Positions 2,046 through 64,000 of a DNA stretch of 64,000 nt are shown one piece after another. The notes beneath the pieces are model-generated. The model saw only the letters and a program-made list of their open reading frames with translations, did no database searches and was not told the DNA's origin. Location: positions 7,874,001 to 7,938,000 of the forward strand of contig OZ024752.1 of assembly GCA_964016885.1 (NCBI GenBank), given 5' to 3'. The position numbers and the translations under genes were made by a program. Numbering within the stretch: position 1 is the stretch's first letter; each line of letters starts with the position of its first letter. Source of the stretch: Eledone cirrhosa (lineage: Eukaryota).

Positions 2046-2119
2046 AGACTAAAATGTCTGCTGTAAGAGTTTATGACTGAATTTCAAAAACTTCTAGTCG
2101 GATGTGGATGAAATGTTAC

Positions 2120-2602: not shown

Positions 2603-2758
2603 CTGAGGTGGATAAAAATCCAAAGTACATTCAATACAGGCAGACATTCCAGGGAAGATAACTCTGGCATTCCCCTTGAACCCTTCAGTTCCACCGTCGA
2701 CCATTGGAATCACTGACGCTTGATCTAGAATACTGTCTTCATAGTTTAATAAACTTAT
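2603..2758 (-). CDS. UBA3: UBA3 exon ([52 protein letters not shown])
   Basis: 156 nt, tttcAG / [19 protein letters not shown] retains the Arg known as the NEDD8 selectivity gate; CxxC zinc motif. Confidence 0.98.
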
Positions 2759-2868
2759 CTGAAATAACAAAGATTAACCCTTCATTAACATATTTCTCAC
2801 AATTTAACTGATATGGAATTGATGTCTGATATTTTATTGGTTTATGGAATATATCAGGTAAATATAAT

Positions 2869-3476: not shown

Positions 3477-3774
3477 TAGAAAAAGAAAGAAAATCTAGAT
3501 TGAGAAGAATGGAATGTAAAATAGGAAAATATAAAGAAAAAAGAAAAAAAACGGAAGGGGAGGGAAGGGCAAGAACTCTAGTGTCACAGAAGAATGAGGA
3601 GGGGGAGGATGATTGGGCTCTGGGGCTAGGGGCAGTGGTAGAGGGGCTGTGTCCCGCCGACTGACTGTAAAACCATTCCTGCAGACAATGGCCAGTGACA
3701 CTCGCTACAACAGCCACCCCACCTCGCGGGGCCCGCTGACGTTCCAATCTTGAGGAGCTCCACTGTACGGGGTC

Positions 3775-4035
3775 CAACCCAACCAAATCACATACATCAA
3801 CACTATCGAATGATCCCATTGAGACATGAAGTAGTTGATTTTTTTACCTTGGTTACACCATTACTGAAGAGGTGGGTTTTTCTGCAGTGGGTTATGATCT
3901 AAGTCAGGTGGTGTATGGAGTGGCAAACTCCAGCGCTTTATCCAAAAGGGTTGCCAAGATTGTTGGGTAGAAATCCACTATGTCAAATTGGGTGAATTTA
4001 GCTTTGTTAGTGTTGAAGGAGTTAAACCACTTGGT
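3775..4035 (-). pseudogene. Penelope-like element reverse transcriptase remnant (Naiad/Chlamys-like), frameshifted
   Basis: WFNSFNTNKAKFTQFDIVDFYPTILATLLDKALEFA, then IITHCRKTHLF...VKK, then VSMGSFDSVDVCDLVGL. Matches the pattern FIQFDIxxFYPSI...FDVTMGSYDGAEVCELVGL. Confidence 0.75.
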
Positions 4036-4114
4036 AAAAGAGTTTATACATATATATAATATATATACACACATATATACATATAGACATATATATACAC
4101 ATATATGTACACAC

Positions 4115-4155
<41 letters not shown>

Positions 4156-4335
4156 CATATACACTTACATACATATATATATATATATATAAAATCTATG
4201 TCTTGATTTTTTTTTTTTAATTGAGTTTGAATTATTTTCCCATATCTTACGTTAAATATTTTCCATTTTGACGTTATAGTCACTTATATATATTATGAAA
4301 TACTGTTGGCTTCTTGCTCACATTAATTTCTCTAT

Positions 4336-4374
<39 letters not shown>

Positions 4375-4376
<2 letters not shown>

Positions 4377-4625
4377 CAGCAGAGGATAAAAAATTCAAGT
4401 ATGTTTTGCAGTGTGAAGTCCAGAAACATGAAGTGTTCAGGATTGCAAAGCAGTGCATTAGGGACAATTATGATGTCATTGGTGGGAAGTGTGTTGGAGA
4501 TGATGAAGGCACATTTGCCCTCACAGGCGTTGAAAAGAAAGCTGAATGGAAGAGCCATTATGAGAGATTACTGAATGAGGAGAATGCATGCTAGAATGAG
4601 GCCCTACCCCAAGTGGTGGTGGACC
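4375..4625 (+). mobile_element. RTE-type LINE ORF fragment (endonuclease-RT linker)
   Basis: VFRIAKQCIRDNYDVIGGKCVGDDEG...WKSHYERLLNEEN. Confidence 0.7.
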
Positions 4626-4956
4626 CACACCCAAACACATAATTCTGCAGGACACTGAAGCTAGCGGTGTCCTGCAGAATTCTGTGTTTGGGTGTGTGCT
4701 GAATTGAACTCGCTGTGACCTTATAGCATTGTCTGCTGAGGTGGGTGGTGGACTGATGGCTGGGGAGAATCACCTAGGGTTGTAGTAATCTAGGTGGTGG
4801 TTAAGTGGTCAACTGCCCCCACCTCTGCGTCTATGCTGAGCTGTAGGGAAGTTCTACAGTTTACAAGGGAGCGGACAACCCCAGCAAAACCATAATAAAT
4901 GTTTTCAGTCCACTCCCTTGCAGCCATGATTACCATGGAAACGTAACCTTTTACGC

Positions 4957-5118
4957 AATGTTGTTGTCTGATGAAATTATGTTGTTTGATGAAATTATGT
5001 TGTTTAATGAAATTATGTTGTTGTCTGATGAAATTATGTTGTTGTCTGATGAAATTATGTTGTTGTCTGATGAAATTATGTTGTTGTCTGATGAAATCAT
5101 ATTGTTGTCTGATGAAAT
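4957..5118 (+). repeat. 21/18-bp minisatellite (ATGTTGTTGTCTGATGAAATT)
   Basis: About 8 direct copies. Confidence 0.9.
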
Positions 5119-5640
5119 CAGTTCCTTCCTCTTTGAAAGATTTATTATATTTATATGTGTATATAGGTGTGTGTGTGTATATGTACAGTATATAGGTGTG
5201 TGTGTGTGTATATGTACAGTATATAGGTGTGTGTGTGTATGTACAGTATATAGGTGTGTGTGTATATATATACAGTATATAGGTGTGTGTGTGTATGTAC
5301 AATATATAGGTGTGTGTGTATATATATATATATATGTAGAGTATATAGGTGTGTGTATATATATATATATATGTACAGTATATAGGTGTGTGTATATATA
5401 TACACAATGTATGTACAATGAGAAAAGTTGAGTCAAGAGTTGGGTGAAAGATGTGTTTAGCTTCAATAGTTTATTACCAGACATAAGTGACTATCTGGGA
5501 AGAGGGCGGGGAGGGTGGTGGTGAGAGGGGAGAGAGAAAAAACAGGAGTGTTGTATATTACCAAATAGAAAAGGATTGGTTGTTTTAGTCATAAGGAAAC
5601 AGAAGAAAACTTGTAATAAGTATTGTATATACTTTAGTAT

Positions 5641-5916
5641 TGTATATGGTATCTTCTGTATTATACAACCATGTATATGGTATCTTCTGTATTATACAAC
5701 CATGTATATGGTATCTTCTGTATTAACAACCATGTATATGGTATCTTCTGTTTTATACAACCATGTATATGGTATCTTCTGTTTTATACAACCATGTATA
5801 TGGTATCTTCTGTTTTATACAACCATGTATATGGTATCTTCTGTTTTATACAACCATGTATATGGTATCTTCTGTTTTATACAACCATGTATATGGTATC
5901 TTCTGTTTTATACAAC
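5641..5916 (+). repeat. 31-bp minisatellite
   Basis: TGTATATGGTATCTTCTGTTTTATACAACCA, ~9 copies. Confidence 0.9.
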
Positions 5917-5989
5917 TAATATATATATATATATATATAGACTTTAGGACTGTATATAGTATCTATTGTTTTATACAACCAATTTTTGA

Positions 5990-6235
5990 CAAAAAACACC
6001 CAGTGGTCATGTTGGTGCCATGATAAAAAAGCACCCAGTCCACTCTGTAAGGTGGTCATGTTGGTGCCATGATAAAAAAGCACCCAGTCCACTCTGTAAA
6101 GTGGTCATGTTGGTGCCATGATAAAAAAGCGCCCAGTCTACTCTGTAAAGTGGTCATCTTGGTGCCATGATAAAAAAGCGCCCAGTCCACTCTGTAATGT
6201 GGTTGGTGTTAAGAAAGGCATCCAACCATAAAAAT
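5990..6235 (+). repeat. 49-bp tandem repeat from the RTE/SINE 3' region
   Basis: GTGGTCATGTTGGTGCCATGATAAAAAAGCACCCAGTCCACTCTGTAAA x4, running into GGTTGGTGTTAAGAAAGGCATCCA. Confidence 0.8.
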
Positions 6236-6269
6236 GAAGCTAAAATACAGATCGATATAAACAAGTTGC

Positions 6270-7982
6270 TCTGTATTTTCACAGTAAAGTCTTTACCTCA
6301 CATAATATCTCACACACCATTTACATTACTCTATATATACTATTGTATTGTCACAGTAAAGGCTTTACCTCACATAATATCTCACACACCATTTACATTA
6401 CTCTATATATACTATTGTATTGTCACAGTAAAGGCTTTACCTCACATAATATCTCACACACCATTTACATTACTCTATATATACTATTGTATTTTCACAG
6501 TAAAGGTCTTACCTCACATAATATACCACATAACATTTACATTACTCTATATATACTATTGTATTTTCACAGTAAAGGCTTTACCTCACATAATATTTCA
6601 CATAACATTTACATTACTCTATATATACTATTGTATTTTCACAGTAAAGTCTTTCCTTCACATAATATCTCACATAACATTTACATTACTCTATATATAC
6701 TATTGTATTTTCACAGTAAAGTCTTTACCTCACATAACATTTACATTACTCTATATATACTATTGTATTGTCACAGTAAAGGCTTTACCTCACATAATCT
6801 CACATAACATTTACATTACTCTATATATACTATTGTATTGTCACAGTAAAGGCTTTACCTCACATAATATTTACATTACTCTATATATACTATTGTATTT
6901 TCACAGTAAAGGCTTACCTCACATAATATCTCACATAACATTTACATTACTCTATATATACTATTGTATTTTCACAGTAAAGGCTTTACCTCACATAATA
7001 TACCACATAACATTTACATTACTCTATATATACTATTGTATTGTCACAGTAAAGGCTTTACTTCACATAATATCTCACATAATATTTATATTACTCTATA
7101 TATATACTATTGTATTTTCACAGTAAAGTCTTTACCTCACATAATATCTCACATAACATTTACATTACTCTATATATACTATTGTATTGTCACAGTAAAG
7201 GCTTTACCTCACATAATATCTCACATAATATTTACATTACTCTATATATACTATTGTATTTTCACAGTAAAGGCTTACCTCACATAATATACCACATAAC
7301 ATTTACATTACTCTATATATACTATTGTATTTTCACAGTAAAGGCTTTACCTCACATAATATTTCACATAACATTTACATTACTCTATATATACTATTGT
7401 ATTTTCACAGTAAAGTCTTTCCTTCACATAATATCTCACATAACATTTACATTACTCTATATATACTATTGTATTTTCACAGTAAAGTCTTTACCTCACA
7501 TAACATTTACATTACTCTATATATACTATTGTATTGTCACAGTAAAGGCTTTACCTCACATAATCTCACATAACATTTACATTACTCTATATATACTATT
7601 GTATTGTCACAGTAAAGGCTTTACCTCACATAATATTTACATTACTCTATATATACTATTGTATTTTCACAGTAAAGGCTTACCTCACATAATATCTCAC
7701 ATAACATTTACATTACTCTATATATACTATTGTATTTTCACAGTAAAGGCTTTACCTCACATAATATACCACATAACATTTACATTACTCTATATATATA
7801 CTATTGTATTTTCACAGTAAAGGCTTTATCTCTCATGATATAGAATCTATGAGATTTTGATATTATTTATTGTAAGAACAATACCTTAACATCAGTATGA
7901 GTGGCCGGTTACAGCTGGTTTGAACAGAAAGAGATGAGAAAATTCTGGCCAGATATGGCTGGTTTAAATGTTAACGGGTTAA
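6270..7982 (+). mobile_element. TTAA MITE with large array (>20 units) including an internal higher-order duplication (~766-bp offset)
   Basis: Ends CGGG-TTAA at 7982; variant CACATAATCTCACATAAC recurs at ~6791 and ~7557. Confidence 0.8.
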
Positions 7983-10578: not shown

Positions 10579-10649
10579 CTGAAATAGATAGAACATATAG
10601 AATTGAGGAATATTTCCAGACATTAGTAGATGGGAAAGAAATGAAGCTT

Positions 10650-10820
10650 GTATGCTCCGATGGATGAGTAATAGTTATATATGTGAACGGCAAAGCATAA
10701 ACGAACCAAAAGAGAAACTAGGCATAATAGGAATCAGATATAGTGTGCAGGAGAGGAGATTGTGTTGGTGTGGCCATGTGAAGGATGGCAGCTGTATAAA
10801 AAGGTGCAGAGTGCTCAAAG
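10650..10820 (+). mobile_element. RTE LINE 3' ORF remnant
   Basis: MLRWMSNSYICERQSINEPKEKLGIIGIRYSVQERRLCWCGHV, homologous to the 57.6-58.4 kb copy. Confidence 0.75.
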
Positions 10821-11516
10821 TCAATACTTCTACCCTAGTCTGTATACTCAATACTTCCTCCCTAGTCTGTATACTCAATACTTCCACCCCAGTCTGTCAT
10901 GTCTTACTAGCTCTATACAGATGTCTATTGTGTCTCAACAGTAAGAAGTACTCAATACTTCCTCCCTAGTCTGTCAAGGCTTACTAGCTCTATACAGACG
11001 TTTAAAATTGATTAACTAAACAAACATAAGTGTTCCCAGTTAACATCCAGTCTCTCCTCCTCCTTCTCATGGTTGTTATTTTAACAAATTCTCAAAATTG
11101 ATGAGATAATCTTGATAACAATTTTAGGCAGCAACACAATAATTTTATGGAGGAATATTTGTTAAATATACTTTAAAATAAACGGTATGATAGAACCAGG
11201 GCCAGTTTCAGGCAGTCTGGTATCAAAAGGGTTGTCTTCTTGTAAGATAAGGTGCCAAATAATTAAGGATCTACAGAAAGAGGGGAATATAAGATTTCAT
11301 CAATGTTATAGCTAATGAGAGCCCTTAAAACAGGGTCAAAACAGCAACTACACACAGGCTGCTGATCTTGTAGTTTCTACACTCCTCACACATGCACACT
11401 CACCCCCACAGACACACACTCCCCCACCTACACAGACTCACACTCCTCCCACCCCTACCCCCACACTAGTAGCAATGAGATTGAGTTTCCAACAAACCTA
11501 ACATGAATTACTTTCG

Positions 11517-16650: not shown

Positions 16651-16846
16651 ACAAACGAGTTGTGGTAAGTAACCAGATGGACCATAACGCACCAGAGTAC
16701 TCAATACTTAGGGTAGTAGAGTGGGTAATAGGAAAATGTATGACCCCGACGGCAGAGCTCAAGCCGTTTCGACGGCTATTTCTGGACTCCAGAAATAGCC
16801 GTCGAAACGGCTTGAGCTCTGCCGTCGGGGTCATATATTTTCCTAT
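16651..16846 (-). mobile_element. Fold-back element in (TA)n: near-perfect hairpin 16728-16846 plus one-sided tail
   Basis: Arms of ~58 nt around loop ACT (16786-88). Family members at 17414-17605, ~57460-57600, 59847-59992, ~51352-51400. Confidence 0.8.
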
Positions 16847-17229: not shown

Positions 17230-17413
17230 TGTTTCTACTTTTGGCACAAGGCCAGCAATTACTGGTACTTTATTTTATCGACCCCGTATGGATGAAAGGC
17301 AAAGTTAACCTCGACGGGATTTGAACTCTATATATAATTATAAACAGGAAGGTCAGTAATTCATTACCACCTTATTACCAGTAAGAAAAAAAAAAAAAAA
17401 ATATATATATAGT

Positions 17414-17602
17414 AAAAGGTTCAGGACCCCGACGGCAAAGCTCAAGCCATTTCGACAGCTATTTCTGGACTAGAAATAGCTGTCGAAACGGCTTGAGCTC
17501 TGCCGTCAGGGTCCTGAACCTTTTCCTATTACCCACTCTACTACCCAAAGTATCGAGTACTCTGGTGCGCTATGGTCCACCCGGTTCCTTACCACACTTT
17601 GT

Positions 17603-17605
<3 letters not shown>
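17414..17605 (+). mobile_element. Fold-back element of the same family, opposite orientation
   Basis: Hairpin 17414-17524 then tail ...TATCGAGTACTCTGGTGCGCTATGGTCC...; flanked by TA runs. Confidence 0.8.
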
Positions 17606-17634
<29 letters not shown>

Positions 17635-17974: not shown

Positions 17975-19367
17975 TTAGCCCTTTACCTTTTACATTACTC
18001 TATATAAACTCATATTTTCACAGTAAAGGCTTTACCTCTCATAATATTGAATCTACGAGATTTTGATATTATTTTGAGAATGATACCTTAAGATGAGTAT
18101 GAGTGGCCAGTTACAGCTGGTTTGAACAGTAAGAGGTGATATAACATCAAAATCTCAGATTCGATATTATGTGAGTTAAAGCCTTTACTGTGAAAATACA
18201 ATAGTATATATAGAGTAATGTAAATGTTATGTGAGATATTATGTGAGGTAAAACCTTTACTGTGAAAATACAATAGTATATATAAAGTAATGTAAATGTT
18301 ATGTGAGATATTATGAGGTAAAGCCTTTACTGTGAAAATACAATAGTATATATAGAGTAATGTAAATGTTATATGAGATATTATGAGGTAAAGCCTTTAC
18401 TGTGAAAATACAATAGTATATATAGAGTAATGTAAATGTTATGTGAGATATTATGAGGTAAAGCCTTTACTGTGAAAATACAATAGTATATATAGAGTAA
18501 TGTAAATGTTATGTGAGATATTATGTGAGGTAAAGCCTTTACTGTGACAATACAATAGTATATATAGAGTAATGTAAATGTTATGTGAGATATTATGTGA
18601 GGTAAAGCCTTTACTGTAACAATACAATAGTATATATAGAGTAATGTAAATGTTATGTGAGATATTATGTGAGGTAAAGCCTTTACTCTGACAATACAAT
18701 AGTATATATAGAGTAATGTAAATGTTATGTGAGATATTATGTGAGTTAAAGCCTTTACTGTGAAAATACAATAGTATAGAGTAATGTAAATGTTATGTGA
18801 GATATTATGTGAGGTAAAGCCGTTACTGTGAAAATACAATAGTATATATAGAGTAATGTAAATGTTATGTGAGATATTATGTAAGATAAAGCCTTTACTG
18901 TGAAAATACAATAGTATATATAGAGTAATGTAAATGTTATGTGAGATATTATGTGAGGTAAAGCCTTTACTGTGAAAATACAATAGTATAGAGTAATGTA
19001 AATGTTATGTGAGATATTATGTGAGGTAAAGCCTTTACTGTGAAAATACAATAGTATATATAGAGTAATGTAAATGTTATGTGAGATATTATGTGAGTTA
19101 AAGCCTTTACTGTGAAAATACAATAGTATAGAGTAATGTAAATGTTATGTGAGATATTATGTGAGGTAAAGCCTTTACTGTGACAATACAATAGTATATA
19201 TAGAGTAATGTAAATGTTATGTGAGATATTATGTGAGGTAAAGCCTTTACTGTGAAAATACAATAGTATATATAGAGTAATGTAAATGTTATGTGAGTTA
19301 AAGCCTTTACTGTGAAAATACAATAGTATAGAGTAATGTAAATGTTATGTGAGATATTATTTGAGGT
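17975..19367 (-). mobile_element. Two TTAA MITE copies joined tail-to-tail (short + copy 17975-18140, arrayed - copy 18141-19367)
   Basis: Same 60/72-bp unit, ~17 copies in the - strand member. Confidence 0.75.
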
Positions 19368-25314: not shown

Positions 25315-25442
25315 AATTACAACAGTGATATAAACAAGTACTCAAGTTTCATTGCGTTCTGGGCCCCAATTCAACAGGCTGAATGAATTGGGGCCCAGAA
25401 CCCAACGAAACTTGAGTACTTGTTTATGTCACTGTTGTAATT
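25315..25442 (+). mobile_element. Fold-back element hairpin; its tail is displaced to ~26883-26955 by a LINE insertion
   Basis: AATTACAACAGTGA...TCACTGTTGTAATT inverted arms next to a (TA)n run. Confidence 0.75.
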
Positions 25443-26875
25443 CATCATCATCATCATCATCGTTTAACGTCTATCTTCCACACTTGCATAGGTTTAGACA
25501 GGAGTTGTTCCACGTGAGGCAAGATTAGTTGTCTTGCTCGTATAGGACTGTCTGGCAGGTTTTCTACGGCTGGATGCCTTTCCTAACACCAACCACGTTT
25601 ACAGAGTGGACTGGGAGGTTTTTACCGTGTTACCTACACGGCCACATTACAGCGTGGACTGTGTGTTTTTTTGTCGTGACACCTACACGACCTCATTTGT
25701 TTAGGACTGGATGTTGTGGTACCAACATAACTTTACATCAAAAGGGGTGTGTGGATGGGCGTGGGGGTAGTGGGATGGGGGTGTATTTTTGGTTAGGAGG
25801 TGCCTACTGACTGTAGGTTTCGCTTTGTACTTAGGTAAGGTGGGTCTTCTGTATTACTGTGTAGCGCCAAAGATCTCGGTCCAGTGACATGTCTCGGAGA
25901 GGTGTAAGTGTGTAAGGTCGGAATTTATCAAATCGTCCCAGGTTTTTCTGGGTCTGCCTACACCGTAGCTTCTATCTATTTTGATCGCGCTGCACTTTTT
26001 TATACAGCTGTCGTCTTTCATGCGCATCACGTGACCATACCAACGTAGTCTTCTCTCGAGTAGACAACATCTGATCCCTCTTATTCCTAATTTCTCACTT
26101 AGTTCAATTTATGCTTTGCCGTTCATGTATATTACTATTACACATCCAACGGAGCATGCAAGCTTCGTTCCTTTCCAGTCTGCGCAGATCCTCTGCACAC
26201 AATGCCCAAGTCTCACTGCCATGTAACATTGCTGTTCGTATGCAGGCATCATACAGCCTGCCTTTCATTTTTAGAGAGAAACCTTTAGCAGCCAATAGTG
26301 GTATAAGCTCTCTGAACTTTTTCTATCCCGTTCTGACTCTAGCTACTGTACTTTCAGAGCACCCTCCACCACTGCTGATTTTGTCACCCAGGTAACGGAA
26401 GGTGTCCACTATTTCTATAGAACCATCTGGGCAATGGAAGGAGCTAGTATCCTGTGGGCACTTGCTACTACTTATTGCACCTGAGCATCGGCCACATATA
26501 AAATCTATGTTCTTAGTTAGCTTACCTGTGATCATACTACATCTTTTATGCACCCATACTTTGCATTTGGGACATAAAATGGAATTTCTGCCTACTCCTT
26601 TCCTACACACTGAGCATGGCCATTTCCCAGAGGGGACCAGTGCCCTATTTTCCTTCCTACATACTAGAACTTTAGTCTTAGACAAGTTAATTTTAAGGCC
26701 TTTTGATTCTAGGCCATGCTTCCATGTTTGGAATTTCTTCTCTAGTTCAGCCATTGATTCAGCTATGAGCGTTAGATCATCTGTGTATAGGAGTTCCCAT
26801 GGGCAGCCAGTCTTGAACTCCTCTGTTATAGCCTGAAGGGCAATAATAAATAGGAGGGGGCTAAGGACAGAGCCC
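25443..26875 (-). mobile_element. 5'-truncated RTE-type LINE (RT C-terminal half, 3' UTR, (ATG)n tail) with TGTAATT target-site duplication
   Basis: GSVLSPLLFII...WELLYTDDL...MLHGSETW...RLRWYGHVMRM; TGTAATT at 25436-42 and 26876-82; at least one in-frame stop. Confidence 0.9.
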
Positions 26876-27444
26876 TGTAATTATTTATACTAAACTCGTC
26901 CTACGGACTGAGTGCTCTTACTCTTGGATATTTCCACTTAACTTTTACTTCAGTATATATATTGCTTTATGTAGAGGGGCCTAATAAAAAAAAGCATGGT
27001 GTCTGACGCTCTACCGATTCTGCCAATCCATATATAATGAAGAATATAAGAGGTTGTCTGAGGTTCTGATTGGCTAAAAGGTCTTTGAAAATGTGAATTG
27101 CTTCAGTTCCAACAGTTTGATTGTGAAATGAAGGGACTTAGTCAAATAAGAACTGAGAAATACTATAATATATTTGTTTAGGGTAACAAAGTATGACTAG
27201 AACTGTTGAATAGATGAGAGAGGGGGGTAGGGGCAGAGAGGAGGGAGTAGCGGGGGAGAGAGGGTAGCAGAGAGAGAGAGACAGAGAGAGAATGACAAAT
27301 ATATATATAGAGAGAAATAGAGAGAATGAATGGGAGGAGAAAAAGAGAGAGAGTGAGAGAGAGAGAAAAAAAGACAGAGAAAAGAGAGAGTGAATGAGAG
27401 AGAAAAAGAGAGTGAATGAGAGAGAGAAAGAGAATGAATAAATG

Positions 27445-31017: not shown

Positions 31018-32804
31018 TTAACCCTCTAGTATTTAAACCAGCCATATCCAGCCAGAATTCTCTCACCTCTTTCTGTTCAAACTGCCCATAACCGGCTGCT
31101 CATACTGATGTTAAGGTGTTGTTCTCAAAATAAATATCAAAATCTCATAGATTTGATATTATGAGAGATATTATGTAAGATAAAGCCTTTACCATGAAAA
31201 TATAGTATATATATAGAGTAATGTAAATGTTATGCGAGATATATTGTAAGATAAAGCCTTTACTGTGACAATACAATAGTATATATAGAGTAATGTAAAT
31301 GTTATGTGAGATATTATGAGGTAAAGCCTTTACTGTGAAAATACAATAGTATATATAGAGTAATGTAAATGTTATGTGAGATATTATGAGGTAAAGCCTT
31401 TACTGTGAAAATACAATAGTATATATAGAGTAATGTAAATGTTATGTGAGAAATTATGTGAGGTAAAGCCTTTACTGTGAAAATACAATAGTATATATAG
31501 AGTAATGAAAATGTTATGTGAGATATTATGAGGTAAAGCCTTTACTGTGAAAATACAATAGTATATATAGAGTAATGTAAATGTTATGTGAGATATTATG
31601 AGGTAAAGCCTTTACTGTGAAAATACAATAGTATATATAGAGTAATGTAAATGTTATGTGAGATATTATGTGAGGTAAAGCCTTTACTGTGAAAATACAA
31701 TAGTATATATAGAGTAATGTAAATGTTATGTGAGATATTATGAGGTAAAGCCTTTACTGTGAAAATACAATAGTATATATAGAGTAATGTAAATGTTACG
31801 TGAGATATTATGAGGTAAAGCCTTTACTGTGAAAATACAATAGTATATATAGAGTAATGTAAATGTTATGTGAGATATTATTTGAGGTAAAGCCTTTACT
31901 GTGAAAATACAATAGTATATATAGAGTAATGTAAATGTTATGTGAGATATTATGAGGTAAAGCCTTTACTGTGAAAATACAATAGTATATATAGAGTAAT
32001 GTAAATGTTATGTGAGATATTATGAGGTAAAGCCTGTACTGTGAAAATACAATAGTATATATAGAGTAATGTAAATGTTATGTGAGATATTATGTGAGGT
32101 AAAGACTTTACTGTGAAAATACAATAGTATATATAGAGTAATGTAAATGGTATGTGAGATATTATGTGAGGGAAAGACTTTACTATGAAAATATAGTATA
32201 TATAGAGTAATGTAAATGTTATGTGAGATATTATGTGAGGTAAAGACTTTACTGTGAAAATACAATAGTATATATAGAGTAATGTAAATGTTATGTGAGA
32301 TATTATGAGGTAAAGTCTTTACTGTGAAAATACAATAGTATATATAGAGTAATGTAAATGTTATGTGAGATATTATGTGAGGTAAAACCTTTACTGTGAA
32401 AATACAATAGTATATATAAAGTAATGTAAATGGTATGTGAGATATTATGTGAGGTAAAACCTTTACTGTGAAAATACAATAGTATATATAAAGTAATGTA
32501 AATGTTATGTGAGATATTATGTGAGGTAAAACCTTTACTGTGAAAATACAATAGTATATATAAAGTAATGTAAATGTTATGTGAGATATTATGTGAGGTA
32601 AAACCTTTACTGTGAAAATACAATAGTATATATAAAGTAATGTAAATGGTATGTGAGGTATTATGTGAGGTAAAGACTTTACTGTGACAATACAATAGTA
32701 TATATAGAGTAATGTAAATGGTATGTGAGATATTATGTGAGGTAAAGACTTTACTGTGAAAATACAATAGTATATATGGAGTAATGTAAATGGTAAAGGG
32801 TTAA
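31018..32804 (-). mobile_element. Complete TTAA MITE with ~23-unit array
   Basis: TTAACCCTCTAG ... GGTAAAGGGTTAA; the right TTAA is shared with an adjacent CCC-starting element. Confidence 0.85.
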
Positions 32805-33354
32805 CCCTTTTATGACCAGATCTCTAATGAAATATATAGCCTATAGGTTTCAATTAATTAAAAAAAATAATAAAATATTTGAAGGAATTTAATGAAATAG
32901 TCAGGATTTTCATTGGTAAGCCAGCAATAGTTTGATTTAGACACGATTTTGGGGGAGGGGAAAGACGATTAAATCAACCCCAGTGTGTTACTGGTACTCT
33001 ATTTTATCGACTCTGTAAAGATGAAAGGCAAAGTTAACCTCGGCAAGATTTGATCTCGGAATGTATAGGGCCATAACTTTATGTCACAAAGCATGTTAAC
33101 CCTTTCATGACTGCAATTTCTAATGAAATACACACTATTTCATTTAATTAATGAAAATGTTTGAGAGATTTACTAAAATTATTAATTATTTCATTACAAT
33201 GATAGCAACTTAATGTAAGGTTCTTATATAAAATTGTGATGGAATATTTTTAGATGAATAAATAACTGTTTCTACTTTTGGCACAAGGCCAGCAATTATC
33301 CCTGTGCATGACTGGTACTTTATTTTATCGACCCTGTAAGGATGAAAGGCAAAT

Positions 33355-49285: not shown

Positions 49286-49582
49286 CATAAATACATACAT
49301 ACACGTATGTGTGTGCGCGCATATATTATCATGTGCTAGAAAATTCTTCTAATATTAATATTAAAATATATGCGAGTACATAAACGAAATTCATTTATAA
49401 ATTAAAAAAAATATATATATTTAAATTTGTAACGTAACTTTTTAAAAATAATTACTGAATTTCTTATTTTTAAATAGTTTAAACATATATACAAATGTAT
49501 ATTGTAGCTAACGTAAAGTAGAATTGTGAGAGGGGCCAGTGGAACGGCTTTCGATGTTGTAAGCGGTCGGATTACTGATAGA
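48450..49582. promoter_or_regulatory. Probable promoter region of the PRAF gene, possibly bidirectional with UBA3
   Basis: Unique sequence with more CpG than the surroundings, upstream of the PRAF ATG. ETS-like TTCCGG at 48828-48833; minus-strand donor-like AT|GTAAGC at 48694. Confidence 0.35.
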
Positions 49583-49764
49583 ATGATGGCGGACTTGCAG
49601 TTAGCTCCACTGCGACCTATTGGCGATTTTCTCATGGAATCGGCACGATTCCAAATGCCAAACATGGTGGAGGCCGATAAATGGACAAAACGAGTGCTAC
49701 GGAACCTACTTTATTACCAAACAAATTATTTCTTAACGGCTTTATTCGTCTTTTTGATAATCGG
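49583..49764 (+). CDS. ARL6IP5: PRA1-family protein (ARL6IP5/PRAF3-like) first coding exon
   Basis: MMADLQLAPLRPIGDFLMESARFQMPNMVEADKWTKRVLRNLLYYQTNYFLTALFVFLIIG, with the PRA1 hallmark NLLYYQTNY and a GG|GTAAGA donor. Could be co-orthologous to PRAF2/PRAF3. No second exon found in the window. Confidence 0.9.
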
Positions 49765-50412: not shown

Positions 50413-51562
50413 TATATCTCTATATTATTAATACTAATTTAGTTGCGGTTGGTGTACTGTCGATATCTCACCGTAAGATGTGTAAAAGACTTGTTGAACA
50501 TGATGTTGGAGTGTGTTCGGGAATTATTTAGGTTTCCTCGGGTTATGTTGATCCAGATGAAATAATTTATTATCAGTTTTTTATATTAATTCGTGTGAAT
50601 AAAGTTCAAAGTTGATAGACCACCATGACAAGGTTCCCTGTCCAACAGATGTCTCGGTGTTACATTGTCTTTTAGAAAGATAAGGGGGAAATAACAGGAG
50701 TTTTACTCCCACACCCACTTCATTTTGTCCATTTTTTTTTCTGTCAAAAAAGTTGTGTAACTTACATAGGATGGGGCCATGTAGAAAATATGGCTATGGG
50801 CTTGTCACTGATGTTGTCAAACGAAATTTGGGAATATTTGTAATTTGTTAAATGATTTATTTATTAAGAGAATCGATTTTATATGTTAAATGTTTGTTGT
50901 ACAAAACTATAGTTAGATATCAATTATGGAATATAACTGTTAGCGATAGTTATATATGTGTGTGTGTATGTATATATGTGTGTATGTACATGTGTGTATG
51001 TATGTGCATGTATATATGTGTGTATGTATATGTAGTGTGTATGTATGTGTGTGCATGTATATATATGTGTGTGTATGTATGTGTGTGCATGTATATATGT
51101 GTGTATGTATATGTGTGTATGTCTGTGTGTGTATGTATATATATATGGGTGTGTATGTATATGTGTGTATGTCTGTGTGTGTATGTATGTATATATATAT
51201 GGGTGTGTATGTATGTGTGTGTGTGCTATATATATATATATATATATATATATAAGCGGTTTATGCGAAATGAATCGGGTAAATCAGACTAGTTATTGTT
51301 GTCTTCAATGAAAATCTATTGTGAATGATAACCCTGTATACATTATATGAAAGTGTCGGGACCTCGACGGCTGAGCTCTTGCCCTTTCTACAGCTAGTCC
51401 CATATATAGAGAGAAAGAGGTCGAATCCTAACAGTCGGGCTTGTTGGTATTCTACCTCTTCAATATATCAATTCTGCATTTCATGTATTGAGTACTTCTC
51501 TCATCTTCCACGTCCTCACACCCTAGACACACACACTCTCTATGTATATAAATATGTGTGTG

Positions 51563-51628
<66 letters not shown>

Positions 51629-51637
<9 letters not shown>

Positions 51638-51822
51638 AAAGGCTTCTACAGGACTAGAATTGTTTCATTCGGGAGAAATCATCAGGAAGCTTCCTAATGA
51701 TTTCTCCCGAATGAAACAGTTCTAGTCCTGTAGAAGCCTTTTCTATATTAAATATTTATACTCTGCTTTGTATTGAGTACCTTACTTACTGTGGTTACCC
51801 CCGATTGAACCCTAAATAAACT
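51629..51822 (+). mobile_element. Fold-back element in (TA)n: hairpin 51629-51750 plus tail, hammerhead-like core in the arms
   Basis: Palindromic centre AAGCTT; left arm on - reads CTGATGA-TTTCTCCCGAAT-GAAACAATTCTAGTC. Confidence 0.7.
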
Positions 51823-52164
51823 TTATATATATATGTGTCCAAAAAATGTATACACACTTCAACAGCATTCAAATAAATGTGTATACATTTTGGGGGACAC
51901 CCTGTATATATACACACGCACACACCACAGACAGATATATATATTATATACACACAGACACCAGAGACATATGTGTGTGTGTGTGTTAAGTATTTCTGTA
52001 GAAAAGATAAAGGGAAGAAGAGTGCTCTATATTGTACAGAGCTATTTAATTATATAATATTTCTGTAAGGATCGTCTAGTTTCCTGAAACCTTTGGTAAT
52101 GTAATAATTATATTGTGTTGTTTATTATGTCATATATATATAATGTATGTGGTGTCGTTGAGTG

Positions 52165-52930: not shown

Positions 52931-53302
52931 GAGAAAGGGTGGTGTGGAAGGATAGTGTAGGGGGTGTTGTATATATATATATGTGTTTGGTATGTATATT
53001 TAATCTTGATAGTTTGTATAATTTTGTATAATTTTGTACATAGATCTGTTGAATATGCATGCCAATTCTAACACATATATATCCTAGAAACGATCGTTAA
53101 ATAATGAACTTTTTTTGTTTAATATAAGGAACTGTTTCATTGTTTTATTCATTATTTGTTTAATATTTTATCTTGACTCTGTATTCCGTTTATCTTTCAC
53201 CGAAAGTGATTTTTCATTACATCTCTTCTTTCCATGATATCCGGAATACATTGAGTTCTTCATACGGATTGGACACTACCGTAAACTCTTGGTAGATTTA
53301 TC

Positions 53303-53383
<81 letters not shown>

Positions 53384-53934: not shown

Positions 53935-55363
53935 CCCCCTCTCTCTCTATTTATCTCTATCTATCTCTATCTCTCCCATCATATTTACTTCTTTAATTAC
54001 TTTACACGAATAATTACATCCCCCCCCCCCCCCCGCCCATCTCTATACCTCCGCTTCACATTTCACCCTTCTCCATCTAAACATCTCTCTTTACACCAAC
54101 TTCTACAATATGCAGAAATTGCATTTTCCTCGAAATCTCTAAATTATCGTACACGTAGCTGAAATCGATATAGTATCTGGCTTTGTGTCTGTAATATAGT
54201 AATATATATATATCCGTATGTGGTTGACAGCTGAGTGAAGGGGGTACTCAATACCGAAGTATGGTTTTAATATTCATTTTATTAAGGCTAAATAGTGAGT
54301 CTTGTTACTCTGGAGTTTCACCTGTTTATCAGAGGGTTGTTAGACAAGATCTGATGACAATGTGATAAACGGGTGAAACTTAAAATATATGTGTATATAT
54401 ACATATATATATATACATACATTTTAAGTTTCTTTTCCCTGCTTGCAAGGATGGGACGGGAACTGATTCTGGCTTGATTTCTACAGCTGGATGCCCTTCC
54501 TAATACCAACCTCATTTACAGTGAGTGCTGGGTACTTTTTTGCCGTGGTACCTCCACGACCACTGCAGTGGAATGATATGGGCCCCAGTCCCTATCAGTT
54601 CATTTCTACAGCTGAGTAAACTGGAGCCACGTGAAATAAAGTGTCTTGCTCAAGGACACAACACATCACCCGGTTGCAAGGCCAATGCTCTAACCACTAA
54701 GCCATGTGCCTATATATATATATAAACCGTAAAGCAAAGAATCGCTGCTTTCACTCTTAACGATACTTTGCTTAAACTTTAATCTGTTATTTTAATATAA
54801 CTCACCCACACACACACCCCCAAAAAAGTTTTTTCTCCACACGCCACCCACACCCACAACACGCTTAAACCCCACACACACGTGCTTCCCACCACATATT
54901 TACACCCTCAGCCTCCTGATTCCTCTCCCCCACCCCCCTATCCACACACGCACAGACACTCCGACCCACAAAAACACCCCCCACACACACCTCTTCCTGA
55001 ACATGCAACCCCGTTCTTCCCCCAACCCTTACTTTCACATACACACACACACACCTACACACACACACCACCTTCAGCCCTCCCCGCTCGGACACCCCGT
55101 CTCCCTCTCCCCACTCCACCCGCCACCACCCCTACTCACCCCACCCCCTTCCACCACCTGTTTACCCCCCCCTCTTTTAATTTCAGTTTATTTTGATCAT
55201 GCCTTTATTTTTAAATTTTCTCATTCCTTGTATTTTGATCATGCTTTATTTTTATTTTTTATCTTTATTTGTTAATTTTTCATTCGCACCGTTTCCTTTC
55301 GCTATATGTCTCTCCACCACTCCCCTACACACCTTTTGAACTCTGTTCCCACACACTTCTCAC

Positions 55364-55528: not shown

Positions 55529-55703
55529 GTATATGTAGACATTGAAGTTGGTGGTTCATCACTGGTTGGAACTTTTCAATCATGAGGCAATGGTATAAAA
55601 GCACTCAACGTGACGCAACTCCTGCCTCCTGTCGCTTTATTCAATTATATATATATATATATATACAATGATATTAAATAAATGGAAACTATAAAGCCAT
55701 ATT

Positions 55704-55765
55704 TATTTTATTTTATATATTTCAAGGGTACCAAAAACTTTGGTACGCTTTCATCAGATAAAATA
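55704..55765 (-). ncRNA. Type I hammerhead motif with mutated cleavage site
   Basis: TATTTTAT-CTGATGA-AAGCGTACCAAA gtt TTTGGTACCCTT-GAAA-TATATA-AA-ATAAAATA. Confidence 0.6.
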
Positions 55766-56165
55766 CAAAGAGTGTTTTATAAATTTTGACATAGCCAAGG
55801 AAACATACCTTATCAGTTGAATTTTCCTTGGGTAGTGAAATCATCATCATCATCATCGTTTAACCTCCATCTTCCACGCTTGCATGGGTTTGGACGGGGA
55901 ATATATATATATATATGGGATAACAAATTATCGTTATAGGTAATCCAGTTAGAGGTTGTGAGTAGTCTGTACCGTGGATAGTTTTAACGTACTGCGTTCT
56001 TTGACTCAACAAGAGGTTTCCATAGTTAGGTAGCGAGTTCGCGAGAATTCCCATGCAGATCTTTCTTGGAGTGATAATAGTGAAAGAGTGAAGAATAACA
56101 TGGTCGGCTGTACAAAAATAAAACCCCTTTTATACAGCCGACCATGTTATTCTTCACTCTTTCAC

Positions 56166-56202
<37 letters not shown>

Positions 56203-56229
56203 ATCAAAAGATGGTTAAAAGAGTTCCAA

Positions 56230-56302
56230 GTATTTTATTATGCGCATTTCAAAAAGAAATATCATCATGGGATGATATCTGCGTTCTCATCAGATAAAAT
56301 AC
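56230..56302 (-). ncRNA. Type I hammerhead ribozyme motif at the centre of fold-back element 56198-56425
   Basis: GTATTTTAT-CTGATGA-stem II (AGATATCATC ccat GATGATATTT)-GAAA-TGCGCA-TA-ATAAAATAC. Confidence 0.75.
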
Positions 56303-56421
56303 TTGAACTCTTTTAACCATCTTTTGATCTTATATTATTTATACTCCAGTCCTACAAACTGTAGAGTGCTACTTATCCGATATTTGCATTGCTTTATTGT
56401 GCTACAATAAAACTCACCTCC

Positions 56422-56493
<72 letters not shown>

Positions 56494-56899
56494 CTGAATA
56501 TAAAAGAAAAATCGAACACAGACATATACATATATGTGTTCAAATCGTAAGGGACTAGCGAATCTGGTCCCTTACGATTTGAACACATATATCTCCGTGT
56601 TCGTTTTTCTTTTATATTCAGTTATAATATACGGCTCGGAAAAATCTCTTTCCTAGAGCTATTTTATTGTAAGAGACTATTTTGAGTTTCTAACTCAATA
56701 TATACCTTTGATATATATATATACATATAGAAGTTATATTTAATTTGTTGGGATACAACAAGCAAATATTTTTATAACTGATATAAAGCACTCAACAAAA
56801 TTTTTGGTGTAAAAATACAATATATTAACAAATGGAAACTATATTTATAAAACCATATTTATTTCATTATACATATTTCAAGGACACTGATCTATATTA

Positions 56900-56964
56900 T
56901 ATTTTATCTGATGAAAGCGCACCATAATTTGCTTTGGTGTCCTTGAAATATGTATAATGAAATA
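56900..56964 (+). ncRNA. Type I hammerhead ribozyme motif in fold-back element ~56730-56995
   Basis: TATTTTAT-CTGATGA-AAGCGCACCA...TGGTGTCCTT-GAAA-TATGTA-TA-ATGAAATA. Confidence 0.75.
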
Positions 56965-56988
56965 AATATAGTTTCCATTTGTTAATAT

Positions 56989-57051
<63 letters not shown>

Positions 57052-57081
57052 AAATTAAAAGATGGTTTAAAAAGTTCCATA

Positions 57082-57148
57082 TATTTTATTATGCGCATTT
57101 CGAAAACATCATCCTGGGACAAAAATTGTGTTCTCATCAGATAAAATA
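57082..57148 (-). ncRNA. Type I hammerhead motif, left arm of the 57049-57354 hairpin
   Basis: Exact reverse complement of 57255-57321. Confidence 0.75.
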
Positions 57149-57254
57149 AGGTAACATGATATGAGGCCTAAAAACACTTGTCAACAAGAAAGTGATATGT
57201 AGACTGAACACTTTCTTGTTCACAAGTGTTTTTAGGCCTCATATCATGTTACCT

Positions 57255-57321
57255 TATTTTATCTGATGAGAACACAATTTTTGTCCCAGGATGATGTTTT
57301 CGAAATGCGCATAATAAAATA
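57255..57321 (+). ncRNA. Type I hammerhead motif, right arm of the 57049-57354 hairpin
   Basis: Stem I TATTTTAT/ATAAAATA, CTGATGA 57263-69, GAAA 57302-05, palindromic ATGCGCAT stem III, predicted cut after A57313. Confidence 0.8.
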
Positions 57322-57621
57322 TATGGAACTTCTTTAACCATCTTTTAATTTCTTCTTTATATATACTCCAGTTCTACCAACTGTTGAGTGCTACTTATCT
57401 GATATATGCATAGTTTTATTGTTCTACAATATTACTCACCTTCTACATATATATATATATGCTAGATTCAGCTGTCGAAATGGCCAGAGCTCAGCCGTCG
57501 GGGTCCTGACTCTTTTCCCATTGCCCACTCTACTACTCTAAGTAATGAGTACTCTGGTGCGTTATGGTCTACCTGGTATCTTACTATTACTACACCCCCT
57601 TTGTTATATATATATATATAT

Positions 57622-58778
57622 GGGAAAGGCGTAGGTAGAAATTCCATTTTGTGTCCCAAATGCAAAGTTTGGGTTCATAAAAGATGTAGTGGGATCACAG
57701 GTAAGCTAACTAAGAACATAGATTTTACATGTGGCCGGTGCTCTGGTGCAATAAGTAGCAGCAAGTGCCCACAAAATACTAGCTCTTTCAACTGCGCAGA
57801 GGGTTCTATAGAAATAGTGGACAGCTTCCGTTACCTGGGTGACAAAATCAGCAGTGGGGGAGGGTGCTCTGAAAGTACAGTAGCTAGAGTCAGAACTGGG
57901 TGGAAAAAGTTCAGAGAGCTTATACCACTATTAGCCGCTAAAGGGTTCTCCCTAAAAATGAAAGGCAGGTTGTACGATGCCTGCATACGAACAGCAATGT
58001 TGCATGGCAGTGAGACCTGGGCATTGTGTGCAGAGGATATACGCAGACTAGAGAGGAACGAAGCTTGCATGCTCCGCTGGATGTGTAATAGTAATATACG
58101 TGAACGACAAAGCATAAACGAACTAAGGAAAAAATTAGAAATAAGAGGGATCAGATGTTGTTTACTAGAGAGAAGGCTACGTTGGTATGGTCACGTGATG
58201 CGCATGAAGGACGATAGCTGTATAACAAAGTGCAGGGCAATAAAGATAGACGGTAGCCACGGAATAGGCAGACCCAGAAAAACCTGGGACGAGCTGATAA
58301 ACTCCGACCTCACACAGTTACACCTCACCAAGACAATGTCACTGGACCGAGACCTTTGGCGGTACTCAGTAATAGAGAAGACCCGCCTTACCTAAATACA
58401 AAGTAAAACCTACTACAGTCAGTAGGCATCTCTAACAAAATACACCCCCGTCCCACCACCCCCACCCCATCCACACCGCCCCCCCTCTATGTAAAGTTAT
58501 GTTGGTGCCACACCATCCAGGCCGAAACAAATGAGATCGTGTAGGTGTCACGACAAAAAAACACACAGTCCACGCTGTAATGTGGCCATGTAGGCAACAC
58601 GGTAAAAACCTCCCAGACCCACACTGTAAATGTGGTTGGTGTTAGGAAGGGCATCCAACTGTAGAAAACCTGCCAGACAGTCCTATGCGAGCAAGACAAT
58701 CACTCTTGCCTCAAGTGGGACTACCCCCGTCCAAACCCATGCAAGCGTGAAACACGGACGTTAAACGATGATGATGAT
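57622..58778 (+). mobile_element. 5'-truncated RTE LINE, open 3' ORF to 58395, 3' UTR and (GAT)n tail
   Basis: CPKC..WVHKRC..CGRC zinc finger-like segment, FRYLGD, MLHGSETW, RLRWYGHV; highly similar to 25443-26875. Confidence 0.9.
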
Positions 58779-60270
58779 ATAGAGAGATATATCATCTGGT
58801 TCATTGTTTGGGTTCAATAGATGTAGGAAAGTAATTATATCAACTGACATTATGTAGGATGACATGTGACATTAATTCAATCATATTAGAGCATGTAATA
58901 ATTGTTCCTAATTTAGGCACAAGACCAGCAATTACCCCAGTGCATTACTGGTACTTTATTTTATCGACCCTGTAAGGATGTAGGGCAAAGTTAACCTCGG
59001 CAAGATTTGAACTCAGACCGTAAAGGACCATAACTCTATGCTGCAAAGCATGGCGTCCGACCCTCTACTGATACTGATATCTATATGTTCGTGTGTGTAT
59101 ATTCCCCCCCCCCCATTTGTGGGTCACTGTATAAGGCCCCACACATTATATATCTATACATTCGTGTGTGTATATTCCTGCCCCCCCCCCCCTTAATCTG
59201 TGGGTCACAATATAAGGCCCCTCGTATATATTTCTTCACCCTTTATTTATATGTAAGTCCTTGGTTTTTGTTTACTCATCACTTCTCAATATTTACCGAG
59301 TTCATTTTTCCTACGTTAACTTTAAAACAAACATTTTTTTAAATTTATATTCCCCAAAATAATTTTCCTTTGTTTTAAATATATATTTTAAGCATTTATC
59401 TTCTCTTCTTCTTTGGCCCCTTATTCCTGAGAGGGTTGTGTGGGCAGAGTCCTCAAACACTCCTTCCAGCAGGTCCTGTCAGAAGCAACCGTCCCCAACT
59501 GATCCGGCTGGATCCCGAAGTGTGACCAACCAAGCTCATGGATGTTATCCAACCATCTTGCTTGGGGTCTACCCCTGGGTCTCCTGCCAGTTGGTTTGGC
59601 CCATAAAATCTGTCCAGCGATTCTTTCCTGAGACATTCTAACCACATGTCCGTAATTTATAATCTTCAAGATATATGTTAGTTAGGAAGTATTTAACAAG
59701 AGTGAAGTGTGGACTGGATGCTTTTTGTTGTGACACCTACATGGCCACTTTACAGCGGGGGTGAGTTGGGGGGACATATTGTATATATGCTTCAGCTTTG
59801 GCCTGTACCGGTGGGAAGTTGAGATATACATATATATATATATATAACAAAGGAAATGTGGTAAGGAACCAGATGGACCATAATGCACCAAAGTATTCAA
59901 TACTTAGGGTAGTAGCTTGGGTAATAGGAACGAGTAGGACGTAGCCGTCGAAACGGGTTGAGCTCAGCCGTCGGGGTCCTACTCGTTCCTATATATATAT
60001 ACTAGACCGCCTGTGATCCATTGGATCTTGTTCACTTAAAAGTATTTTTTTTAAATCGTGAAATGAAATTGGAAGGCCCATATATATATATATGTGTGTG
60101 TAAAAGATAAACAAATAACAACACAATCGGTACAGTATATGGAAGGGATATATTAGGTTAATGCTTGATATGTGGCTGTGTTATAATTTCATTCAACTAA
60201 ACCACCAGCTTCCATTTTCCTTCTCTCTCTTTCAATCTACTCTCCCACAACCACTATCTCTTCCGTTCTA

Positions 60271-63069: not shown

Positions 63070-63929
63070 ATTTAACCTGGCCATATCTGACCAGAATTCT
63101 CTCACCTCTATCTGTTTAAACCGGCTGTAACTGACTGCTCATACTGATGTTAAGGTATTGTTCTCAAAATAAATATCAAAATCTCATAGATTCGATATTA
63201 TGCGAGATATTATGTGTGATAAAGCCTTTACCATAAAAATACAATAGTATATATAGAGTAATGTAAATGTTATGTGAGATATTATGTAAGATAAAGCCTT
63301 TACCATAAAAATACAATAGTATATATAGAGTAATGTAAATGTTATGTGAGATATTATGTAAGATAAAGCCTTTACTGTGAAAATACAATAGTATATATAG
63401 AGTAATGTAAATGTTATGTGAGATATTATGTAAGATAAAGCCTTTACTGTGAAAATACAATAGTATATATAGAGTAATGTAAATGTTATGTGAGATATTA
63501 TGTAAGATAAAGCCTTTACTGTGAAAATACAATAGTATATATAGAGTAATGTAAATGTTATGTGAGATATTATGTAAGATAAAGCCTTTACTGTGAAAAT
63601 ACAATAGTATATATAGAGTAATGTAAATGTTATGTGAGATATTATGTAAGATAAAGCCTTTACTGTGAAAATACAATAGTATATATAGAGTAATGTAAAT
63701 GTTATGTGAGATATTATGTAAGATAAAGCCTTTACTGTGAAAATACAATAGTATATATAGAGTAATGTAAATGTTATGTGAGATATTATGTGAGGTAAAG
63801 CCTTTACTGTGAAAATACAATAGTATATATAGAGTAATGTAAATGTTATGTGAGATATTATGTAAGATAAAGCCTTTACTGTGAAAATACAATAGTATAT
63901 ATAGAGTAATGTAAATGGTAAAGGGTTAA
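63070..63929 (-). mobile_element. TTAA MITE with ~10 homogeneous 72-bp units
   Basis: Ends GGTAAAGGG-TTAA at 63929. Confidence 0.8.
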
Positions 63930-64000
63930 TCAGAGGGAAGGTGGTGTCAATAGCCCTTTCTTATGGCCTCCCATATTGATGGGGAGAGAGAGAGAATGGA

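Follow-up and report, generated by a model that had tools for sequence, protein, structure and literature searches.

Hammerhead-bearing fold-back insertions in (TA)n tracts of Eledone cirrhosa are probably truncated 3' ends of Hydra-clade-like Penelope retrotransposons

Penelope-like elements (PLEs) of the Hydra clade carry a canonical hammerhead ribozyme motif near the 3' end and insert into (TA)n tracts, as set out in the survey by Craig et al. 2021 (PMC8557442). The criteria for their proteins are the motifs RWK and DKT, a CxCX5C linker and no CCHH. In Files S1 and S2 of the survey, Hydra-1_Obim of Octopus bimaculoides combines a (TA)n preference with a canonical hammerhead, and two further papers record 235 Rfam hammerhead-1 loci in giant squid (PMC6962438) and 31 recently active PLE families in O. 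vulgaris (PMC13282606). PLE insertions often combine a 5'-truncated inverted copy with a tail that is present at one end (PMC8557442, PMC3846280). The present analysis concerns a 64-kb stretch of AT-rich Eledone cirrhosa DNA abundant in microsatellites (contig OZ024752.1, positions 7,874,001 to 7,938,000; the window), in which the region at 55.5-57.6 kb forms a string of short non-coding units separated by (TA)n tracts. It is probable that this cluster consists of the truncated 3' ends of several high-copy families inserted in TA tracts, likely derived from Hydra-clade-like Penelope retrotransposons and with their hammerheads likely as passengers. As such it is a side product to be expected of a class of element that has been found in octopus before, and as a ribozyme discovery it is ordinary.

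A hammerhead descriptor run over the entire 64 kb on both strands gave five matches, every one inside this region. A stricter scan, requiring a Watson-Crick stem I of at least 4 bp and a short stem III, was the one submitted to a shuffle control, and its three matches in the window compare with none in 200 block-wise dinucleotide shuffles; A2 was missed because of a G-U pair in its stem I, and A1 was likewise missed. The five motifs, with core positions in hammerhead numbering, are as follows.

55704-55765, minus strand: hammerhead A1, with A at 16.1 and no in-register NUH triplet; predicted inactive
56231-56301, minus strand: hammerhead B1, complete, G-U at 10.1-11.1, palindrome AUGCGCAU
56900-56964, plus strand: hammerhead A2, complete, A-U at 10.1-11.1, palindrome AUAUGUAU, predicted cut after 56956
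57082-57148, minus strand: hammerhead B2-left, situated in the inverted arm of B2
57255-57321, plus strand: hammerhead B2-right, in the main copy of B2, G-C at 10.1-11.1, predicted cut after 57313

An earlier reading made from the letters of this DNA (the sequence-only reading) had placed five type I hammerheads here. Four of them (B1, A2, B2-left and B2-right) are complete, each with CUGAUGA and GAAA, the pair A15.1-U16.1 and AUA as its triplet, stem III and loop III being formed by a self-complementary sequence of 8 nt, and the two cuts that had been foretold on the plus strand, after 57313 and 56956, were reproduced by the descriptor, with further predicted cuts at 57090 and 56239 on the minus strand. 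The fifth, A1, is probably inactive, since A at 16.1 leaves no in-register NUH triplet. Moreover, B2-left and B2-right are not independent, because both are arms of one inverted duplication, so that the five motifs represent four insertions of two families, A and B (identities A1/A2 55/65, B1/B2 58/71, A2/B2 49/71). All motifs follow a common plan of stem II, in which an internal loop separates the first 3 bp from a distal stem; the pair 10.1-11.1 is A-U throughout family A, and the stems II of A1 and A2, the two copies compared, differ by a single two-sided change. That stem II still pairs despite its differing sequence was well founded for A1, A2 and B1 (folding energies of -9.0, -8.2 and -6.9 kcal/mol, respectively), but it is weak in B2 (-2.5 kcal/mol), the lowest-energy fold of which draws core G8/A9 into pairing. 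The Rfam models yielded no hammerhead match in the window, neither at gathering score nor at E<=10; the matches to microRNA precursors, all below gathering score, are regarded as generic hairpins. Pattern scans of viral contigs, metagenome contigs and prokaryote genomes gave no matches, and six loci returned by a looser metagenome pattern were dropped as chance, as they had neither stems nor TA runs nor likeness by BLAST.

The motifs lie in units that were mapped as follows, the (TA)n tracts bounding them being located at 55482-515, 55646-65, 55901-16, 56169-200, 56425-88, 56711-23, 56993-57048, 57447-60 and 57605-21.

55532-55645, minus strand: u0, a putative tail fragment with just the 3' half of the tail hairpin (TT-GAGT-GCT), recognised by eye
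55666-55842, minus strand: A1, the 3' end of a family A element, lacking an inverted arm
55917-56168, minus strand: C, a 90-nt fold-back plus tail, with no hammerhead; long-loop tail hairpin at 56004-56072
56201-56424, plus strand: B1, its inverted arm (56201-56301, minus strand) holding the whole hammerhead, its tail reaching the TA tract
56343-56367, plus strand: tail hairpin of B1, with ACTC, a 4-bp inner stem, a 2-nt bulge and GAGT
56489-56710, plus strand: D, a fold-back of about 140 nt plus tail, with no hammerhead core; a third family
56634-56659, plus strand: tail hairpin of D, in the GCTC/GAGC form
56730-56992, main copy on the minus strand: A2, cut short inside stem II, with a tail; the whole hammerhead lies on the inverted arm (plus strand)
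56790-56810, minus strand: decayed tail hairpin of A2
57049-57446, plus strand: B2, of a high-copy family, a 146-nt head-to-head duplication (57049-194 and 57209-354) plus a one-sided tail
57365-57389, plus strand: tail hairpin of B2, from the descriptor and from read variants
57461-57604, plus strand: E4, of a further family, truncated in stem II, with the hammerhead 3' half only; tail hairpin at 57527-57550

Read in the sense of the element, a unit runs from an upstream piece through the hammerhead and 27-57 nt to an AT/TA tract, and then through the tail into genomic (TA)n. The inverted arm, where present, spans from the junction to the AT/TA tract and is without the tail. An inverted truncated copy with a tail at one end only is found in B1, B2, A2, C and D, as well as in E1, E2, E5 and F elsewhere in the window, and the TA-bounded pattern continues past the cluster in the adjoining E4 and in several other units. 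The mapping of the units thus bears out the earlier description of TA-bounded non-coding units with a hairpin and one-sided tail. The fragment u0, in which neither the strict nor the long-loop hairpin scan found a full tail hairpin, is a probable tail on the evidence of its motif and may belong to A1, split off by an expanded TA tract; on its upstream side, A1 is interrupted by an unrelated ATC-tailed repeat at about 55840-55900. A small hairpin also lies upstream of the hammerhead in A1 (55769-55830) and in family B (57209-57229), and the latter (ACACTT/AAGTGT) is kept in the loose ends of reads from other copies. An internal hairpin of D was considered as a hammerhead remnant and rejected, having no GAAA in register.

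The junctions between the arms differ from copy to copy. The main copy of B1 begins at 56294, the first base past the predicted cut, and the joint is an 8-nt repeat of stem I, while the junction of B2 lies 46-60 nt upstream of stem I; in family A, the main copy of A2 starts inside stem II and A1 has no inverted arm. Two further strand-switch points, with joints at 57240 and 57277, were each seen in four raw reads. The arms of B1 and of B2 are nearly identical (37/38 and 143/146 positions), and both insertions are therefore young. Fold-back points that differ within families fit truncation and inversion arising afresh at each insertion of an ordinary PLE. They also speak against miniature inverted-repeat transposable elements (MITEs), that is, DNA transposons with long terminal inverted repeats at TA in which the hammerhead match would be incidental: the fold-back shape, the TA flanks, the non-coding sequence and the high copy number would all suit such elements, but the tails are one-sided, A1 and E4 lack an inverted arm, no hammerhead arose in 200 shuffles and the core is spared by the variants shown for family B (see below), so that this explanation is largely refuted and retains very little credibility. 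The breakpoints of the window units often fall within hammerhead stems; this is not yet evidence of a cause, because the motif fills much of such short inserts.

The tails of these units share a further structure. Directly after the AT/TA tract stands a hairpin of the form RCTC-stem-loop-stem-NN-GAGY, with an inner stem of 4-5 bp and a 2-nt bulge, which begins 27-57 nt past the cut site in most units and 77 nt past it in one. Measured from the start of the hairpin, the tails are 64-82 nt long in six of seven cases and 130 nt in unit H. A strict descriptor found six such hairpins in the window (B1, B2, D and three E copies), all in TA-bounded units, against a shuffle mean of 0.135 (maximum 2 in 200 shuffles), and three or more, the number present in the cluster region, were reached in none of 2000 shuffles of that region. 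The descriptor was designed after sight of the motif, which overstates the significance for B1, B2 and D, while the E matches lay outside its design. Among the six, four different inner stems occur and both ACTC/GAGT and GCTC/GAGC are represented. When long loops were allowed, the total rose to ten with C, H and two matches in copies of a LINE-type (long interspersed nuclear element) open reading frame (ORF), the last two being counted as chance; the tails of A2 and F hold decayed or shorter forms. In family B, none of the 40 sequence variants shown falls in the 16 stem positions of the hairpin and three fall in its 7-nt loop (P 0.06). The support for the hairpin is comparative, as judged from sequence. 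By eye, the same architecture was seen in four of the six Hydra-clade consensi in File S7 of PMC8557442: after the hammerhead in Hydra-2_Amil, Hydra-2_Ajap and Hydra-1_Crog (one outer mismatch), 38-47 nt past the cut site in these three, and at the start of the Hydra-1_Ajap consensus. The main text of that paper does not contain the words 'hairpin' or 'stem-loop', and no paper describing the tail hairpin was found in a literature search that left most subscription journals and Repbase outside its reach. The hairpin looks like a new feature among these units.

The abundance of family B was judged from the reads or contigs of four of the 14 listed runs, aligned to the main arm of B2 (57190-57446) at 80% likeness; runs X7-X11, with small shares, did not enter the analysis. 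Matches comprised 1727 contigs in X1, possibly the sample from which the window derives, and 3475 raw reads in X12, a run that has the same species label and stems from a different study; X5 and X6, under two other species labels, gave 21 and 10 contigs, respectively. The contigs of X1 add up to 1.4 billion letters, in keeping with a large genome. Summed depth in X1 peaks at 1.1 million, compared with 5-32 for the eight long contigs listed; as a rough estimate, depth not being copy number, this suggests about 10^4-10^5 arms. Variant places number 85, of which 40 were shown and analysed. None of the 40 lies in the 13 core and 16 stem I positions (a uniform draw would place 4.5 there, P 0.005; for the core alone, P 0.10), and 12 lie in stem II, although these statistics are crude in that similar reads are favoured. 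A 4- to 13-fold excess of depth of the hammerhead 3' half over its 5' half, and of the core over the tail, was rejected as proof of truncation; it is partly an artefact, because the loose ends of 662 and 1618 reads continue into intact stem II and tail.

Such numbers raise the possibility of dedicated non-autonomous families resembling short interspersed nuclear elements (SINEs) or retrozymes, that is, short transcripts of hammerhead and tail, a few hundred nt long and with no ORF upstream, that are mobilised in trans by a Hydra-like PLE protein. Very high copy number would be expected of these, and the depth in X1, 183,000 at the CUGAUGA box, is about 200 times lower (934) at a point 65 nt upstream of it, but divergence and the edge of the aligned stretch both confound this drop, and family B continues upstream in AT-rich sequence, as 20 contigs with loose ends before 57195 attest. 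Non-autonomous PLE derivatives are known, among them Chlamys MRC1 (listed in PMC8557442) and retrozymes; the units E1 and E2 have a common fold-back centre, and the divergent stem II of B2 occurs in both arms, which implies that a divergent source copy itself served as template. Against this, the 5' ends are ragged rather than fixed and no head-to-tail arrays occur in the window, where units are single or head-to-head. The sequence-only reading had taken the units for non-autonomous elements, and as a dedicated family this was not borne out, given the fold-back points that vary within families. We consider the explanation unlikely, though it deserves some weight, and prefer the truncated ends of ordinary PLEs.

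For the latter, membership of the Hydra clade is likely on the sequence features. The type I hammerhead near the 3' end, the insertion in (TA)n, the self-complementary stem III, which may be odd- or even-centred, the AT/TA tract followed by a tail and the inverted 5'-truncated copy, noted for Penelope-13_HM, all have counterparts among the Hydra elements of PMC8557442, whereas no ORF was seen in the units here. By analogy, the units would function like PLE 3' ends, and a PLE origin with at least two families, as claimed earlier, is supported by the anatomy and the motif identities. The hammerheads described from the pseudo-long terminal repeats of PLEs by Cervera and de la Pena 2014 (PMC4209133) are likewise type I with a weak palindromic helix III suited to dimers and with a variable stem II, and occur mostly as single or opposite-strand copies from truncated PLEs; in contrast to them, the form here is not minimal, having a 2-bp stem III with a 4-nt loop, and their canonical G10.1-C11.1 is found only in B2. 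Animal non-LTR (long terminal repeat) retrozymes, as outlined by Cervera and de la Pena 2020 (PMC7229834) and Li et al. 2026 (10.64898/2026.07.22.740005), are also non-coding, AT-rich, 150-450 nt long, PLE-related and equipped with a type I hammerhead, but they form head-to-tail arrays giving circular RNAs, whereas the units here are head-to-head with a tail and are known from DNA alone. The Naiad clade lacks a canonical hammerhead, whereas families A and B carry complete motifs, and visual comparison with the final ~600 nt of three Naiad consensi from octopus showed no likeness. Because Hydra-1_Obim has been published from O. bimaculoides, hammerhead PLEs are not new to cephalopods as a class. 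The earlier statement that such elements were undescribed there is wrong for the class, as that element and the giant squid loci show, and it may hold for these families: no paper on families A and B was found in a search that did not cover the O. vulgaris repeat library (Zenodo, PMC13282606), which may contain them, and three motifs of the window had no match in the supplement of PMC8557442, where line breaks can hide matches.

A working model is supplied by the Poseidon element PAc of Anolis (Frangieh et al. 2024, PMC11167929). Its purified protein cuts and extends both strands, two internal start sites of reverse transcriptase (RT) define the tail, and the hammerhead needs protein in order to cleave, whereas insertion in vitro can proceed without the hammerhead. 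It differs from the present units in clade, in its AT-rich rather than (TA)n target and in its tail, which lies in the start of the ORF, while the tails here look non-coding. On this model, an autonomous RT/GIY-YIG protein encoded elsewhere would cut (TA)n on both strands, and both DNA ends would prime reverse transcription at two RNA sites, namely the end of the tail and the AT/TA tract before the tail hairpin. Both cDNAs would halt within ~250 nt and be joined head to head, often via a repeat of stem I or stem II, the outcome being a hairpin with a one-sided tail; each insertion would leave TA on both sides, hence fresh targets and clustering. Cleavage at AUA would take place in the parent RNA, where the hammerhead would act either as a dimer, paired by way of the 8-nt palindrome, or with the help of protein. 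In the present copies the hammerhead is predicted to be mostly disabled, being masked in a long duplex (B2), halved (the main copy of A2, and E4) or mutated (A1).

In a folding model that ignores tertiary contacts of the core, monomers were predicted to be weak, at -0.8 to -6.3 kcal/mol, and double hammerheads better, at -21.5 to -28.5 kcal/mol, the latter exceeding a pair of forced monomers by 12-20 kcal/mol in stability. Lunse et al. reportedly described in 2017 that PLE hammerheads cleave as dimers. The sequence-only reading also mentioned dimer cleavage for hammerheads of this type, but within the cluster it is unlikely by folding: the B2 core is fully paired in a modelled read-through transcript (unpaired probability 0.00), which makes dimer action of A2 with B2-right and of B1 with B2-left improbable. 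The B1 motif, with its stem I lengthened by the fold-back, is predicted to be the best candidate to stay cleavable.

The same origin could be ascribed to another endonuclease-bearing (EN+) PLE clade, such as Neptune, Nematis or Penelope/Poseidon, or the inversion to self-priming of a folded-back strand. An inverted pseudo-long terminal repeat, a tail and a hammerhead are common to all canonical EN+ clades in the account given by PMC8557442; opposite-strand hammerhead pairs 100-700 bp apart are mentioned for Schistosoma in PMC4209133, and self-priming was proposed in PMC3846280 from palindromes at inverted junctions. The combination of (TA)n targeting, a hammerhead and the hairpin in four of six consensi points to Hydra instead, and self-priming alone leaves unexplained that the inverted arm ends at the TA tract and the main arm retains the tail, so that this alternative seems distinctly improbable.

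Several observations weigh against the Hydra-clade reading and the mechanism built on it. The hammerheads of this window, with an AU-only 8-bp stem I, an AUA site and a long, interrupted stem II, differ from all rows of File S2 of PMC8557442, in which stems II of 3-7 bp and GUH sites prevail among Hydra hammerheads, and the Hydra-1_Obim hammerhead listed there differs from families A and B. Tails of 64-82 nt compare with 30-40 bp usual for PLEs; a count by eye puts the tails of the Hydra consensi at 50-69 nt, and those here are somewhat longer. Of seven tails, only three have the tail hairpin as their lowest-energy fold, and in only one is it more stable than in shuffles. The hairpin was not seen by eye in the Hydra-1_Amil or Hydra-1_Obim consensus of File S7, and because of these absences, and with Neptune, Nematis and Poseidon outside the comparison, it is not proven to be clade-specific. 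The common fold-back centre of E1 and E2 would also fit the copying of a master element. Of 1969 one-direction X12 reads, 1181 (22 starts) have a loop III change by which the palindrome is lost, and the double-hammerhead fold lies 2.5-7.6 kcal/mol above the best co-fold. The loose ends of family B, which reach only ~30 nt past 57195, gave no link to RT or GIY-YIG, and neither domain was found among the six window ORFs scanned. Finally, the step of priming from two ends is one that we infer by analogy with Poseidon.

A more far-reaching proposal, which is tentative and on balance doubtful, is that the hairpin is an undescribed cis-acting element of Hydra PLEs from coral to octopus that marks protein binding and the RT start, and that at least eight families here have given tens of thousands of fold-backs of 150-400 nt, with junctions set by the hammerhead stems. 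If true, the structure of the ribozyme would determine the shape of insertions, and the inserts would amount to a large source of long double-stranded RNA, dispersed over the genome. The tail hairpin is a concrete candidate for an RNA signal recognised by Hydra-type proteins. The mechanism of PLE insertion and the role of the hammerhead are treated as open questions in PMC8557442 and PMC11167929, and many short, young inserts with readable ends and junction would permit a genome-wide test of two-end priming against self-priming, and could show whether breakpoints accumulate at the cut site or within stem II. In annotation work, units of this kind can easily be mistaken for MITEs, SINEs or microRNA hairpins.

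Further families with related features occur elsewhere in the window.

16651-16843, 17412-17607, ~51255-51400, 57461-57604 and 59847-59989: five copies of family E, next to TA tracts
51631-51823: F, a 118-nt fold-back plus tail, folding back in stem I
53083-53305: H, TA-bounded, starting in stem II, with a perfect 8-nt palindrome and a long-loop tail hairpin
54214-54393: G, TA-bounded, with a decayed hammerhead core
25316-25443: I, a fold-back with a long GC-rich hairpin at its centre and the 3' half of a hammerhead on each arm

Family E has the hammerhead 3' half only, with a 5-bp stem III and, in intact copies, a GUC site. Four of its five copies have a tail, three of these fitting the strict hairpin descriptor, and two copies fold back exactly at the same long hairpin, which is placed like stem II. 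Unit F carries a nearly whole hammerhead on both arms, without the 5' strand of stem I, and its CUGAUGAU...UGAAA form is as in the Hydra magnipapillata rows of File S2 of PMC8557442; the stems III of G and I resemble those of Hydra hammerheads given in the same source. Unit I sits between a TA tract and an ATC-tailed repeat.

This short ATC-tailed repeat occurs at least seven times in the window (55840-55900, 10279, 25444, 42634, 52165, 58725 and 61963). The ORF at 57466-58395, beside the cluster, was considered as a PLE candidate and rejected, as it is a PHD-bearing LINE-type fragment, another copy of which matches RVT_1. Repeat fragments of this LINE type, with PHD after RT, lie at 57620-58395 (plus strand), 26323-26880 (minus strand) and 10607-10969 (plus strand); Pfam gave RVT_1 and PHD at 26.3 kb, PHD only, near or below the cut-off, at 57.6 kb, and none at 10.6 kb. 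A stretch of higher complexity amid simple repeats, at 49402-49760, resembles a coding exon and had no Pfam match in the two frames tried. A minisatellite of ~70 nt forms separate arrays on both strands, at 1487-7820, 18088-19344, 31216-32823 and 63176-63960.

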